A DNA stretch of 48,595 nucleotides, taken from the NCBI GenBank assembly GCA_035656655.1, contig DASRSE010000125.1:1-48595 (forward strand), written 5' to 3'. This stretch comes from Pirellulales bacterium (GTDB lineage: Bacteria; Planctomycetota; Planctomycetia; Pirellulales; DASRSE01). Position 1 is the first letter of the stretch; each line of letters opens with the position of its first letter. A program made the position numbers and the translations under genes. The notes under the pieces are model-generated. The model searched no databases. It was not told the DNA's origin and saw only the letters and a list, made by a program, of their open reading frames with translations. Positions 44,261 through 48,595 of this stretch are shown here, in pieces.

Positions 44261-45322
44261 ATGGAACGCATGGAAGCTGTTCAACCTGCGAATTCTTCTT
44301 CGCTAGCGCCGCCCGTGCACGTGCTCTGGCTGAATGCCGGACTAAGTTGCGACGGCGATACGATCTCGATCACGGCGGCGACTCAGCCGAGCTTGGAAGA
44401 CCTCGTTCTCGGGCTGATTCCCGGCATACCCGTGCTGAATCTGCATCATCCGGTCTTGGCCTACGAAAATGGCAACGAGTTTTTAGAATCGTTTCGCCGC
44501 GCGGCGCGCGGCGAACTTGATCCATTTGTGCTCGTCGTCGAAGGTTCCATCCCTAATGAAACGATCAAGGCGGAGGGCTATTGGGCCGGTTTCGGGGCCG
44601 ACCCCTTGACGGGACAACCCATTCTGACTTGCCAATGGATCGATCGCCTCGCTCCTAAAGCTTGGGCGGTTGTCGCCATCGGCACCTGCGCCTCGTACGG
44701 CGGAATCCACGCGATGGCCGGCAACCCGACAGGCTGCATGGGCTTGCCCGACTATCTCGGCTGGACGTGGAAATCGGCGGCCGGCGTTCCGCTGGTTTGC
44801 GTGCCGGGCTGTCCCGTGCAGCCGGACAATTTCATGGAGACGCTGCTCTATTTGTTGCGGCAAGCGGGTGGAACTGCTCCGCCGATTCCGCTCGACGAGA
44901 AGTTGCGGCCGACTTGGCTATTTCAACAAACCTTGCACGAAGGATGCAACCGCGCAGGCTACTATGAGCAAGCCAATTTTGCGACCGAATATGGCGCCCC
45001 GCAGTGCATCGTAAAATTGGGATGCTGGGGTCCGGTCGTGCAGTGCAACGTCGGCAAGCGCGGCTGGATGAACGGAATTGGCGGCTGCGCCAGCGAAGGG
45101 GGCGTGTGCATCGGCTGTACGATGCCCGGCTTCCCCGACAAGTTCATGCCGTTTCTCGACGAGCCGCCGGGGGCGAAGTTGTCGACGACGGCGGTCGCCG
45201 TTTATGGCCGGACCGTCCGAGCGCTGCGCAGCTTTACGCAACACTCGATGAATCAAGAGCCGGTCTGGCGGCAGCGTTCCGCGGAGTTAACGACCGGCTA
45301 CACGTCGCCCTCCCAACCGTAG
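44261..45322 (+). CDS. hhyS: [NiFe]-hydrogenase small subunit, group 1h/5 (Hhy-type), copy 2
   Basis: 353 aa with no Tat signal. GLSCDGD, GTCASYGG and PGCPVQPDN are present, and all FeS Cys ligands of copy 1 are conserved. GGAG lies 5 nt upstream of the ATG at 44261. An alternative ATG is at 44270. Confidence 0.9.
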   Translation: MERMEAVQPANSSSLAPPVHVLWLNAGLSCDGDTISITAATQPSLEDLVLGLIPGIPVLNLHHPVLAYENGNEFLESFRRAARGELDPFVLVVEGSIPNETIKAEGYWAGFGADPLTGQPILTCQWIDRLAPKAWAVVAIGTCASYGGIHAMAGNPTGCMGLPDYLGWTWKSAAGVPLVCVPGCPVQPDNFMETLLYLLRQAGGTAPPIPLDEKLRPTWLFQQTLHEGCNRAGYYEQANFATEYGAPQCIVKLGCWGPVVQCNVGKRGWMNGIGGCASEGGVCIGCTMPGFPDKFMPFLDEPPGAKLSTTAVAVYGRTVRALRSFTQHSMNQEPVWRQRSAELTTGYTSPSQP

Positions 45323-45362
45323 CTTTCATTTTCTTCAAGCGCCTTCTCAGCCGCATTCCGCC

Positions 45363-47147
45363 ATGACTGCTCCCTTGCCTGCCGCTTCACCATCTGCCTC
45401 GAAACTGGTTGAGATGTCCTGGGATCCGATCACGCGGATCGTCGGCAGTCTCGGGATCTATACCAAGCTCGACTTCGAGCAGCGGCGCGTGGTCGAGTGC
45501 CATAGCACCTCGTCGATTTTTCGCGGCTATAGCATTTTCATGAAGGGGAAAGATCCGCGCGACGCCCATTTGATCACGAGCCGGATCTGCGGCATCTGCG
45601 GCGACAACCAAGCGACCTGTGCCGTGTACGCGCAGAATATGGCATTCGGCGTCCAGCCGCCCGCCTTGGCCGATTGGATCATCAATCTCGGCGAAGCGGC
45701 CGAGTACATGTTCGACCACAACCTCTATCAGGACAATCTGGTCGGCGTCGATTTTTGCGAGCGCATGGTCCAAGAAACGAATCCTGGCGTCCTGGCTCGG
45801 GCCGCGCAAACCGATGCGCCGCATGCCAAGCTGCACGGCTATCGGACCATCGCCGACATCATGCGAGCGCTGAATCCCTTTGAAGGGGCGTTGTATCGCG
45901 AAGCGCTGCAGATGAGCCGGCTGACCCGCGAAATGTTTTGCTTGATGGAGGGGCGGCATGTCCACCCCTCGACGCTCTACCCTGGCGGCGTCGGCACGGT
46001 GGCATCGGTTCAGCTCTTCAACGATTATCTGGTGCGGCTGCTCAAATACATCGACTTTTTGAAGCGTGTGATTCCGCTGCACGACGACCTCTTCAACTTC
46101 TTCTATGAAGCCTTGCCCGGCTATGAAGAAGTCGGACGCCGGCGCGTGCTGCTGGCTTGCTTCGGCTCGTTCAACGACCCGGCAGTCTGCGACTATCGCT
46201 ATGCATCGATGAGCCAGTGGGGACGAGCCATGTTTGTGACGCCAGGCATCGTCGTCGATGGCGAGCTGATCACGACCGACTTGGTCGAAATCAATCTCGG
46301 CATTCGCATTCTCGTGAACAGCTCGTTCTATGACGATTGGCAAGATCAGGATCGCTTCGTTTCGGTCGATCCGCTCGGCAATCGCGTCGACCCGCGTCAC
46401 CCCTGGAATCAAACGACCATTCCGCGGCCGCAAAAGCGCAATTTTTCCGACAAGTATAGTTGGGTGATGTCGCCGCGGTGGTTCAATCGTCGCACCGGAG
46501 AGCATCTCGCGCTCGACACGGGAGGCGGCCCGCTGGCCCGGTTTTGGGTGACCGCGCTGGCCAACAAGGTTCGCTTGAATCACGTCCAAGCCACCGGTCA
46601 CAGCGTGAAAATTCAACTGCCGAAGACCGCTTCGTTTCCCGAGATGGAACTTGAATGGCAGATTCCGAAATGGAGCAACGCCCTCGAACGCGACCGGGCG
46701 CGAACTTATTTTCAGGCGTATGCGGCCGCCGCCGCACTCGATTTTCTCGAGCGCGCCATGGCCGAAGTCCACGCCGGCCGCACGAACACCTGGTCCGCCT
46801 TCAAAGTGCCCGACGAAGCGATCGCGTGCGGCTTTCATGAGGCGGTCCGCGGCGTCTTGTCGCATCATGTGGTCATTCGCGAAGGCAAGATCGCGAACTA
46901 CCATCCTTATCCGCCCACGCCGTGGAACGCCAGCCCGCGCGATCCGTATGGAACCGCCGGACCGTACGAGGACGCAGTCCAAAACACGCCCATTTTTGAA
47001 GAGAATGGCCCGGACCAGTTCAAAGGGATCGATATCATGCGGACCGTCCGCAGTTTTGATCCGTGCCTGCCGTGCGGGGTGCACATGTATCTAGGGAACG
47101 GAAAAACGCTCGAAGCGCATCAGTCGCCGACCTTTGGCCGTTCTTAG
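45363..47147 (+). CDS. hhyL: [NiFe]-hydrogenase large subunit, group 1h/5 (Hhy-type), copy 2, with a variant L1 motif
   Basis: 594 aa. L1 is TSRICGICGDNQATC (Gln codon CAA at 45609-45611, where copy 1 has His). L2 is SFDPCLPCGVHMY plus a C-terminal tail. Confidence 0.9.
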   Translation: MTAPLPAASPSASKLVEMSWDPITRIVGSLGIYTKLDFEQRRVVECHSTSSIFRGYSIFMKGKDPRDAHLITSRICGICGDNQATCAVYAQNMAFGVQPPALADWIINLGEAAEYMFDHNLYQDNLVGVDFCERMVQETNPGVLARAAQTDAPHAKLHGYRTIADIMRALNPFEGALYREALQMSRLTREMFCLMEGRHVHPSTLYPGGVGTVASVQLFNDYLVRLLKYIDFLKRVIPLHDDLFNFFYEALPGYEEVGRRRVLLACFGSFNDPAVCDYRYASMSQWGRAMFVTPGIVVDGELITTDLVEINLGIRILVNSSFYDDWQDQDRFVSVDPLGNRVDPRHPWNQTTIPRPQKRNFSDKYSWVMSPRWFNRRTGEHLALDTGGGPLARFWVTALANKVRLNHVQATGHSVKIQLPKTASFPEMELEWQIPKWSNALERDRARTYFQAYAAAAALDFLERAMAEVHAGRTNTWSAFKVPDEAIACGFHEAVRGVLSHHVVIREGKIANYHPYPPTPWNASPRDPYGTAGPYEDAVQNTPIFEENGPDQFKGIDIMRTVRSFDPCLPCGVHMYLGNGKTLEAHQSPTFGRS

Positions 47148-47390
47148 CACGGGCACGACCGGCGCCGTTCGCGCCGCCGGCACGCGGCGCGGCGAACCCG
47201 CTCACGCCGAATCCGCAGTCGGGGTGGCGGTTGCCGCTCCGGTTGTGCGCGTGGTAGCGGTTGTGTCGGCGGCGCGTCCGCCCAAACGCGCGCTTCGCAG
47301 GCGGCGTGGCACGCCGCCAAGCCATCGCCGCGCCGAAAAACCTAAGCTTGCGAACCTGCCCCCCGCCCCGTGACCCCGCCCACCTTTGCC

Positions 47391-48595
47391 ATGAGCTCTG
47401 CGTTGCTTGCGAGTGCTCCGACCGTTCACTCCGCGGAACAACAGTTTCTCGCGCTCGCCGCGGCGGTTTCCGACGCGCTGGTCGTCGTGACGTCGGCCGG
47501 ACTGATCGAACAGATTAATCCGCAAGCGGAAAAGATGTTTGGCTATCGAGCCGAAGAATTGGTCGGTCTGCCGATCGAGACTTTGATCTCCGAACGCTGC
47601 CGCCTTAAGCACGGCGAATGGCGCGATGCTTTTTTGCCATTGCTATCCACACGCCCGCTCGGCGAAGTCGGCGATCTTCACGGCCGCCGCCGCAATGGCG
47701 AAGAGTTTCCGATCGAGACGAATCTGAGCCCGATGCCAACTGAGTCGGGCATGTTCGAGATTTGCCTGGTGCGCGACATCAGCGACCGCCGGCGGCACGA
47801 AGCGCAACTGCGCAAAGCCGAAGCTCGCTATCGGACGCTCCTCGAAAAAATCCCGGCCGTCACGTTTATGGCGTCGCTCGACGGAGGGGTCAACGAGATG
47901 TACGTCAGCCCTCAGATCGAGACCATGCTCGGCTTTAGCCAGGCCGAATGGCTCGGTGACCCGGTCTTGTGGTATCGCCAATTGCACCCCGAGGACCGCG
48001 AGCGTTGGCACACGGAATTCGCGCGGACCTGCGCCGCCGGCGAATCGTTCCGCTCGCAATATCGGTTCATTGCCCGCGACGGGCACGTCGTTTGGGTGCA
48101 TGGCGAAGCGACAATGGTTCGCGACACCGATGGCACGCCGTTGTTTTTACAAGGGATGGCTTTTGACATTTCGGAGCGCAAGGCGGCCGAGCAGGTCATG
48201 CTTGAGTCTCAAGCCGAGTTGGAGCGCCGCGTTCAAGACCGTACCGCGGAACTGGGCTTGCTCAACAACGAGTTGCAGAATGAAATTATGGAACGGCGCA
48301 AGGCCGAAGAGCAGCGCGTCCGCTATGTCCGCGAACTCGAGTCCGCTTCCGCCCGCATCGAAGAACAGTCGCGCGCCGTTCATGCGGCGCGCGAACGGGC
48401 CGAGGTCGCCAATCGCGCGAAAAGCGAATTTCTGGCCAATATGAGCCACGAAATCCGCACGCCGATGACCGCGATTCTGGGCTATGCCGACATTCTCAAA
48501 GACGCCCTTTCTGATGAAACGTGTCTCGGCGCCATCGACACGATTCGCCGCAATGGCAACCATTTGTTGAGCATCATCAACGATATTCTCGACCT
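47391..48595 (+). CDS. PAS-PAS sensor histidine kinase; 3' end lies outside the window
   Basis: My own translation from the ATG at 47391 gives [33 protein letters not shown]... It contains two PAS domains ([16 protein letters not shown] and [26 protein letters not shown]), a coiled coil and the H-box [18 protein letters not shown]. The frame is open to the last base. This ORF is not in the supplied track because it has no stop. Confidence 0.85.

Follow-up and report, generated by a model that had tools for sequence, protein, structure and literature searches.

The group 1h (actinobacterial-type, Hhy/Hof) [NiFe]-hydrogenases, encoded by hhy genes and regarded as atmospheric-type enzymes, include the AH enzyme of Cupriavidus necator (5AA5) and Hhy of Mycobacterium smegmatis. 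Control of hhy by DosST/DosR has been reported in M. smegmatis, and according to the same 2026 paper it remains to be understood which signals and sensors govern the oxidation of atmospheric H2 (PMC13098282). Hydrogenases encoded next to signalling proteins are known from other groups. In group 2b, the HoxBC-HoxJ-HoxA system of C. necator and the HupUV-HupT-HupR system have genes for a small subunit, a large subunit and a PAS-domain kinase in this order, and group 2c is listed in HydDB as "diguanylate cyclase-linked (putative)" (PMC5037454). Here we describe a second group 1h gene pair, hhyS2 and hhyL2, and the PAS-domain histidine kinase gene that follows it on a contig of a Pirellulales bacterium (DASRSE010000125.1). 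This complete NCBI contig of 48595 bp, with a G+C content of 61%, is referred to as the window, and all coordinates are based on it. What is new here is that hydrogenase-linked two-component signalling, which is of a known kind, is found in group 1h. On balance we think it probable, with some reservation, that the small subunit of this pair represents a kinase-linked group 1h subfamily, that the PAS-PAS kinase is its conserved partner and senses O2 or redox state, and that an unusual glutamine in the large subunit is private to this contig.

The domain layout of the window was established from Pfam scans and translations of open reading frames (ORFs), with some gene starts compared to JGI gene calls; labels of the P0001 type denote proteins and labels of the L004 type denote contigs or loci compared here. 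The closest named relatives at the hhySL2 locus are Pirellulales and Gemmataceae metagenome-assembled genomes (MAGs). The hhyS2 gene (44261-45322, plus strand) encodes a small subunit of 353 aa, assigned from its ORF, its translation, a match to HofK of 5AA5 and its position in a tree, and hhyL2 (45363-47147, plus strand) encodes a large subunit of 594 aa, assigned from its translation and a match to HofG. HhyL2 matches HofG with 1091 bits (E 0, about 80% identity) and is 77-83% identical to thousands of 1h large subunits, while the best solved relative of HhyS2 is HofK (E 1.7e-168, 564 bits). Both proteins are full-length relatives of the group 1h subunits. HhyS2 carries the LSCDGD proximal-cluster motif and, like its group 1h relatives, has no RRxF stretch at the N-terminus and hence no twin-arginine (Tat) signal.

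The metal ligands are preserved as the initial annotation had reported: HhyL2 keeps the four cysteines of L1 and L2, the L2 motif (DPCLPCGVH) and a C-terminal tail of 20 residues, which continues beyond the cleavage-site His as MYLGNGKTLEAHQSPTFGRS, and ten invariant Cys columns and the CDGD motif are retained in both HhyS2 and HhyS1. The codon bias of hhySL2 at third positions (GC3) is similar to that of neighboring genes. Taken together, these features are those expected of an intact second group 1h [NiFe]-hydrogenase. The first copy is encoded on the minus strand by hhyL1 (20769-22571) and hhyS1 (22689-23753), both assigned from translation and Pfam, and the two copies are 77% (HhyL1/HhyL2) and 66% (HhyS1/HhyS2) identical. 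Genes for a NifU-like protein, DUF5947, DUF6084, a protease and the Hyp proteins flank copy 1 only; copy 2 is an orphan pair, which differs in this from other group 1h systems, and orphan hhySL pairs are also found in the related contigs L004, L005, L086, L088 and L090. As copy 2 is not accompanied by maturation genes, we propose that it would be matured in trans by the hyp and protease genes of the copy 1 cluster.

Comparison with group 2b, using HoxB, HoxC and HoxJ from C. necator pHG1, gives a likeness of gene order and a marked difference in sequence. HhyL2 is 24% identical to HoxC and HhyS2 is 32% identical to HoxB, compared with about 80% for group 1h proteins. The HoxC sequence stops at the cleavage-site His (...CTVH), whereas HhyL2 has its 20-residue tail, a difference already recognized in the initial annotation. 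Additionally, no sigma-54 regulator is present near hhySL2.

The evidence that sets HhyS2 apart comes from the small subunits. We built a neighbor-joining tree of 141 small subunits with our own code and 100 bootstraps. Fifty-one small subunits are directly followed by a kinase gene, and every one of the 100 bootstraps places HhyS2 in a clade with at least 90% of these kinase-adjacent subunits and with only 3-11 of the 86 small subunits that precede a large subunit. The companions of HhyS2 there are small subunits from Acidobacteriota and Gemmataceae whose genes immediately precede one for a kinase of the same PAS-kinase family. HhyS1 falls among the canonical subunits, with a mean identity of 78% to canonical subunits versus 68% to kinase-adjacent ones. 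The two sets also differ at single residues. Position 180 of HhyS2 (LVCVPGCP; codon TGC at 44798-44800, plus strand), four residues before the conserved Cys of the GCP motif, is Cys in 44 of the 51 kinase-adjacent subunits and in all eight members of the HhyS2 clade, and Asn in all 77 canonical subunits, HhyS1 included, as found by sequence and subfamily comparison. Cys180, Gly265 and Ser329 each occur in none of the 77 canonical subunits.

We therefore use the term K-type (kinase-linked) for the HhyS subfamily defined here by Cys180, Gly265 and Ser329, together with Gln261 and Ile35, and by a gene for a kinase of the PAS2 family (named after the second PAS domain described below) in the locus. 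HhyS2 has all five residues, falls in the clade, and its kinase gene lies 243 nt past hhyL2. The substitutions Cys180, Gln261 and Gly265 are close in sequence to conserved Cys ligands. A different cysteine, Cys159 in GNPTGC(MGL), had been singled out in the initial annotation as an extra residue of copy 2; its codon is indeed present (TGC at 44735-44737, plus strand), but it occurs in 42 of the 77 canonical subunits, which makes it the commoner state, and also in HofK of the catalytic C. necator enzyme, whose crystal structure is 5AA5. The diagnostic extra cysteine is Cys180, which had been overlooked. By residues and tree, HhyS2 is thus placed in a previously undescribed, kinase-linked branch of group 1h, whose genes almost always adjoin those of a single family of sensor kinases, and this separates it from the described group 1h systems.

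The kinase gene itself begins with an ATG at 47391 on the same strand as hhyL2, after a spacer of 243 nt (47148-47390, plus strand). It encodes a sensor kinase with a FixL-like PAS domain, a second PAS domain and HisKA (Pfam PAS_9, PAS_3 and HisKA) and is cut by the contig end (47391-48595, plus strand). We found neither a terminator-like nor a promoter-like site in the spacer, and its predicted RNA folding is no more stable than that of shuffled sequence (z = -0.06). Co-transcription of hhyL2 and the kinase gene is possible.

In order to characterize the neighborhood in the closest relatives, we used the proteins with which HhyL2 clusters at an identity of at least 80% (P0003, P0004, P0005, P0006, P0010, P0028 and P0047) and examined the contigs of six of the seven (L004, L005, L086, L088, L089 and L090). 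An orthologous PAS-PAS-HisKA-HATPase-REC hybrid kinase is encoded downstream on the same strand in four of the six (L004, L005, L088 and L089), and the order hhySL followed by the kinase is also seen in L091. The orthologue in L005 is a hybrid kinase of 727 aa, 69% identical to the window kinase over 445 aa; by orthology, the full-length window kinase is predicted to be a PAS-PAS-HisKA-HATPase_c-REC hybrid as well. A frameshift or stop interrupts the kinase orthologue in L004 (15175-16778) and L088 (12146-14329); these interruptions may be indel errors and not pseudogenes, at least one of the contigs being apparently long-read (suffix np1212). A divergent Hpt gene lies upstream in five of the six contigs, accompanied in three of those by a REC-GGDEF-CBS gene, and the other flanking genes vary. 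In L089 the hhySL pair stands in one row with hypF, hypC, hypD and hypE.

The initial annotation had suggested that hhySL2 may be coupled to the kinases on both of its sides. On the upstream side, a signalling operon on the minus strand (37173-43797) is divergent from hhyS2, and the Pfam layout agrees with the description given there. The operon comprises a REC-HisKA-HATPase_c-REC hybrid kinase (37173-38786; Pfam, 537 aa in the JGI call), a cheB methylesterase without a receiver domain (38783-39376; CheB_methylest), a cheR methyltransferase (39376-40200; CheR_N and CheR), and a CHASE3-GAF-HisKA-HATPase_c-REC hybrid kinase (40213-43797; Pfam) whose start is uncertain and whose JGI gene call gives 1154 aa. 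The operon was rejected as a conserved partner, being absent from all six related contigs, where its position is taken by Hpt with or without REC-GGDEF-CBS or by unrelated genes. There is no MCP, cheA or cheW gene in the window, and the operon resembles a methylation-modulated kinase module. For the downstream PAS kinase, the proposed coupling is upheld by conserved synteny, by the tree and by the reverse test described below.

The linkage extends well beyond the closest relatives. We compared 80 mainstream 1h loci of GTDB genomes, most of them acidobacterial. In 48, a gene for a PAS kinase of the family of the window kinase lies upstream of hhyS, and nearly all of these have a further small-subunit gene, hhyS', before the kinase. 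The usual order is hhyS', a PAS-(PAS)-PAS-HisKA_3-HATPase kinase, hhyS, hhyL, DUF5947, DUF6084, hycI and hyp genes; in one of these loci, L010 (5265-11776), the genes for the kinase and HhyS were confirmed to be separated by one for a REC-GerE regulator. Across the two phyla, the PAS domains of the hhy-linked kinases are 45-57% identical to the two PAS domains of the window kinase. The acidobacterial hhyS' is an orphan small-subunit gene, about 70% identical to hhyS and with no large subunit of its own, and its product does not have the canonical N-terminal PYGRxTQ and C-terminal EL-TTGY motifs. This orphan gene upstream of a PAS-HisKA_3 kinase is found in most acidobacterial 1h loci (L006-L085; L114, L115, L119, L123, L125, L129, L130 and L133). 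A Gemmataceae MAG (L078:3738-20077) carries an hhyS'-PAS-PAS-HisKA kinase unit on one strand and, on the other, an apparently orphan hhyL, hypF, hypD, hypE and a second hhyS-hhyL that looks frame-shifted, so that the "second hydrogenase" is split over the strands.

We also ran the comparison in reverse, scanning metagenome contigs with two peptide patterns from the PAS module, blind to hydrogenase genes. This returned 48 kinase loci, of which 24 show hhy or hyp genes, although most of the contigs are shorter than 5 kb. In 12 of the 16 loci with at least 3 kb of upstream flank, an hhy gene lies directly upstream on the same strand. The upstream gene in the 21 loci that have one is hhyS in nine, hycI in eight and hhyL in four. 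The coupling of hhySL2 to the PAS kinase is thus supported by comparative evidence that is much stronger than the evidence from the glutamine discussed below. We found no description of a kinase linkage of group 1h hydrogenases in the searchable literature, in agreement with the initial annotation, and none of the hhyS' and kinase arrangement in the literature searched; Eichorst 2018 (PMC5900883) describes acidobacterial 1h loci and does not mention kinases.

We conducted domain analysis of the kinase in an attempt to predict its signal. The first PAS domain (PAS1, about 47442-47795, plus strand) matches FixL, with E 7e-20 to 8js5 for the whole query and about 1e-10 to the isolated heme domains 1dp6 and 2cmn. 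His74 of the kinase aligns with the proximal heme His of FixL, the GRRRxGxxFP stretch (GxRRxGxxFP) matches as well, and the proximal-type His is conserved in 42 family members. The second PAS domain (PAS2, about 47811-48194, plus strand) is common to the hhy-linked kinases: PAS2 is present in 48 genome loci, that is, in all hhy-linked kinases, and PAS1 in 21. Its consensus is EARYRxLxExxPAVxFMAxLDxGxxExYVSPQIExxLGFSQxEWLxDPVxWYxQxHPDD, and its best solved relatives are uncharacterized PAS domains. A HoxJ-like identity for the kinase was rejected, as the similarity amounts to E 1e-4 over 53 aa; unlike HoxJ, this kinase has a FixL-like PAS domain, and its link to hhySL2 is seen here as adjacency of the genes.

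The likeness to FixL/FixJ and DosS/DosT-DosR lies in the alignment of PAS1 with the FixL heme-PAS, including the proximal His, and in the histidine-kinase transmitter that follows. The differences are that heme binding is predicted from sequence, that the kinase carries the additional family-specific PAS domain, and that in the planctomycete relatives it has a hybrid architecture together with Hpt and REC-GGDEF partners, while the acidobacterial HisKA_3 kinase pairs with a NarL-type (REC-GerE) regulator; there is no FixJ or DosR pair, and no cognate FixJ-type response regulator for the kinase was found in the window. The genes flanking HhySL2 relatives in L004, L088, L090 and L091, which encode REC-GGDEF-CBS and Hpt proteins, recall group 2c, where a hydrogenase is likewise encoded beside c-di-GMP signalling genes. 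The hydrogenase here is of group 1h, however, and the window has no GGDEF or Hpt gene within its 48.6 kb and no Hpt remnant upstream of hhyS2.

A kinase with a predicted heme-PAS domain encoded beside hhy parallels the reported DosST/DosR control of hhy, and therefore we favor an O2- or redox-responsive regulation; the window kinase is most likely a regulator of this type dedicated to this hydrogenase. In the explanation that we prefer, the PAS-PAS kinase would be the conserved signalling partner of hhySL2, would sense O2 or redox state via its FixL-like heme-PAS, and would control the expression of the hydrogenase or a linked output; the second PAS domain is the feature that marks the family. 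Signal output would run through a NarL-type response regulator in Acidobacteriota and through an Hpt protein with a REC-GGDEF-CBS diguanylate cyclase in the planctomycete relatives.

The glutamine was the starting point of the initial annotation, which raised the question of whether it marks a clade. In HhyL2, L1 (RxCGxCxxxH) ends in Gln83, encoded by CAA at 45609-45611 (plus strand); the L1 region reads RICGICGDNQATC, compared with RICGICGDNHATC in HhyL1, where the His codon is CAT at 22314-22316. These and the other sequence facts and coordinates given there for the two copies are all present. The Gln form of the protein, however, is on record only for the NCBI contig. The best database match to HhyL2, P0001, is identical except for a His at residue 83, and is encoded on JGI contig Ga0376680_0003609 of sample 3300036855. 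This contig aligns with window positions 37105-48595 over 11491 bp with no gaps and a single mismatch, at 45611, where the window has A (CAA, Gln) and JGI has T (CAT, His). Two further JGI contigs tile window positions 19217-37097 and carry two more mismatches. Together, the three contigs of this sample cover 19217-48595 except for two short gaps, with three mismatches in about 29.3 kb; because the assemblies are about 99.99% identical over this length, they describe one population. When the exact proteins of the window were looked for on other contigs, only two records of the population were found, one with Gln and one with His. The remaining mismatches are at 19245 (window G, JGI T), which changes Arg to Ser at residue 222 of a UDG-family ORF and lies 29 nt from a JGI contig end, and at 20572 (window A, JGI C), outside assigned genes.

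The L1 His is found in all 120 best homologues (119 relatives and the JGI form of HhyL2), in all 47 representatives with a true L1 among the best 150 of 3077 matches to HhyL2, and in all 97 large subunits of the fetched loci, so that Gln occurs at this position in none of about 260 group 1h large subunits checked. Apparent matches with a non-His L1 in the representative search were discarded as frame-shifted junk. The exact DNA pattern around 45611 gave no matches in metagenome contigs, a collection that is evidently without the JGI sample and provides no allele count, and a profile of L1 with Gln fixed returned nine short fragments only, none with Gln and one of 29 aa with Asn, which is uninformative. 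Since His is present in all relatives checked and in the JGI assembly, Gln is not a character of the clade, and the comparison points to a single-base variant that is private to this contig and does not define a subfamily. This variant represents either an allele that segregates at the strain level or an error in the consensus.

It is quite possible, if somewhat short of an even chance, that the Gln reflects nothing more than an error of consensus or assembly in the NCBI contig and that copy 2 is no different from its His-bearing relatives. The difference is a single base for which the only independent assembly has T, Gln occurs in no other sequence examined, and the position of one of the other mismatches, so near a JGI contig end, suggests that some of the differences may be technical. 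Base 45611 is not within a homopolymer, though, and it is general knowledge that consensus errors of short reads are much rarer than one per 10 kb and that differences between assemblies of one population are usually true polymorphic sites. An error would account for the Gln alone, and it is compatible with the explanation that we prefer. Either way, the active-site change is not yet trustworthy, and a single base of a MAG is poor ground for proposing a novel function of the enzyme until the reads have been examined.

In standard enzymes the L1 His (His88 in Desulfovibrio vulgaris Miyazaki F) forms a hydrogen bond to the sulfur of a cysteine ligand of the active site. HoxC of C. necator pHG1 has Gln at the same position (RVCGICSVSQ), and so does the window allele, whereas the JGI allele and all relatives do not. 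The Gln is a published characteristic of regulatory hydrogenases (RH), a connection that had been missed, and it "seems not to be involved in H2 sensing" (PMC5665086). PMC8229454 cites Buhrke et al. 2002 (JBIC 7:897) for a mutational study of the RH Gln; the exchange dealt with in that work is Q67H of HoxC.

Several observations weigh against the explanation that we prefer. In L004 and L005 the kinase gene is 2.7-3.4 kb from hhyL, with opposite-strand genes between, and the kinase is missing in L086 and L090. The FixL-like PAS domain is missing from roughly half of the acidobacterial kinases, and the heme binding, the signal and the target of the kinase are all predictions. The variant residue is the exact RH signature, which is improbable a priori as a random target with three differences in 29.3 kb; a third-position transversion of any His codon yields Gln, however, and the Gln was selected for attention after the fact from a single record. 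Finally, a regulator that is simply encoded next to its target does not need a retained, dedicated small-subunit paralogue upstream of the kinase, which hints at a physical or electron-transfer link.

Such a link is at the center of an alternative in which HhyS2L2 and the PAS kinase form an H2-sensing module, the group 1h counterpart of HoxBC-HoxJ. The K-type subunit would dock on, or pass electrons to, a PAS or heme domain, H2, perhaps integrated with O2, would set the activity of the kinase, and Gln83 would be a real convergence on the RH signature; in Acidobacteriota the orphan HhyS' with a shared HhyL would take the same role. We consider this unlikely, although it would explain a number of features. 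The order small subunit, large subunit, kinase is that of hoxB, hoxC and hoxJ, the K-type subfamily is tied to a kinase across phyla, with 51 subunits directly before a kinase gene, and it has its own substitutions near the Cys ligands. HhyS' does not have the canonical motifs and is encoded with no large-subunit partner, the variant is identical to the RH Gln, private changes cluster at HhyL2 401-406, and a plain regulator leaves unexplained why a dedicated small-subunit paralogue is kept across phyla. Nevertheless, neither the JGI assembly nor any relative checked has the Gln, and the published view of the RH Gln does not tie it to sensing. HhyL2 keeps the cleavage tail that HoxC does not have and is in sequence a normal 1h protein, the kinase is weakly similar to HoxJ and has a plausible gas-sensing heme PAS of its own, in 8 of 21 cases its gene comes after hycI where an ordinary hhy cluster ends, and in the fetched clusters of L089, L100 and L120 it is the K-type subunit that adjoins the large subunit, pointing to a catalytic role. 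The broader proposal, that group 1h gave rise to a dedicated signalling branch in which the K-type subunit is the input of a heme-PAS kinase whose activity is set by H2 electrons or docking, and in which Gln83 is genuine, is in our view quite improbable.

HhyL2 also carries nine private changes (I36L, H83Q, L318V, G319N, D375N, G401N, D404R, G406N and H587Q) at positions that are near-invariant in 113 mainstream 1h sequences, compared to 0-5 in its clade mates. G401N, D404R and G406N are clustered in residues 401-406 (window 46563-46580; ALANKVRLNHV vs ALAGKVDIGYL), which could represent an altered surface or interface, and H587Q falls within the cleaved tail. The private changes may reflect relaxed constraint or a functional shift beside a canonical copy, but the contrast is only suggestive because HhyL2 is on a long branch with no close relative sampled. 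A further alternative is that selection has relaxed on copy 2 as a redundant paralogue, that the Gln is a real, recent and damaging mutation on the way to decay of the gene, and that the kinase synteny is inherited and has no present role. The genome does have a complete canonical cluster, the excess of private substitutions and the otherwise invariant L1 His fit such decay, and the assemblies differ at about one site per 10 kb, as expected for segregating variants. On the other hand, copy 2 has an unbroken reading frame with every metal ligand and the tail preserved, its GC3 codon bias resembles that of the neighboring genes, the count of private changes is inflated by the long branch, and the S2-L2-kinase arrangement is kept in several divergent genomes. 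We regard decay as very unlikely.

The remainder of the hydrogenase region is occupied by a full canonical group 1h hhy/hyp cluster (cluster 1, about 20.7-37.1 kb, ending at 37067), to which hhyL1 and hhyS1 belong. Its minus strand also encodes a HycI-type protease, two unannotated ORFs, DUF6084, DUF5947, a NifU-like protein, hypB and hypA, and its plus strand encodes hypC, hypD, hypE, a SIS-domain protein and hypF. A gene for an FNT-type (formate/nitrite transporter) channel (23983-25182, plus strand) lies between hhyS1 and the protease gene; its ORF has a long N-terminal extension, and the JGI call is 331 aa. The SIS-domain (GmhA-like) gene (33477-34679, plus strand) is located between hypE and hypF, and a putative phosphoheptose isomerase (gmhA) has been associated with 1h hydrogenase loci (Eichorst 2018, PMC5900883). 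An HrpB-type helicase is encoded at 15630-18161 (minus strand), a few kb from the hydrogenase region, and HrpB-type helicases are found just upstream of REC-GGDEF-CBS/Hpt/hhySL in L004 (4033-6579) and L090 (276-2846). An insertion or rearrangement may have placed cluster 1 and the CHASE3 operon between HrpB and hhySL2 in this genome.

One PAS-kinase family and a dedicated small-subunit paralogue thus become candidates for the open question of how high-affinity hydrogenases are switched. Both are encoded in or beside the hhy clusters of Acidobacteriota and Planctomycetota, which are abundant soil phyla. The acidobacterial version is present in many sequenced genomes, so that gene knock-outs and biochemical work may come within reach should cultured carriers be identified. 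If, improbable as we hold it, the K-type subunit were indeed the input of the kinase, H2 sensing would have arisen independently a second time, in a form able to integrate H2 and O2 in consumers of atmospheric H2.

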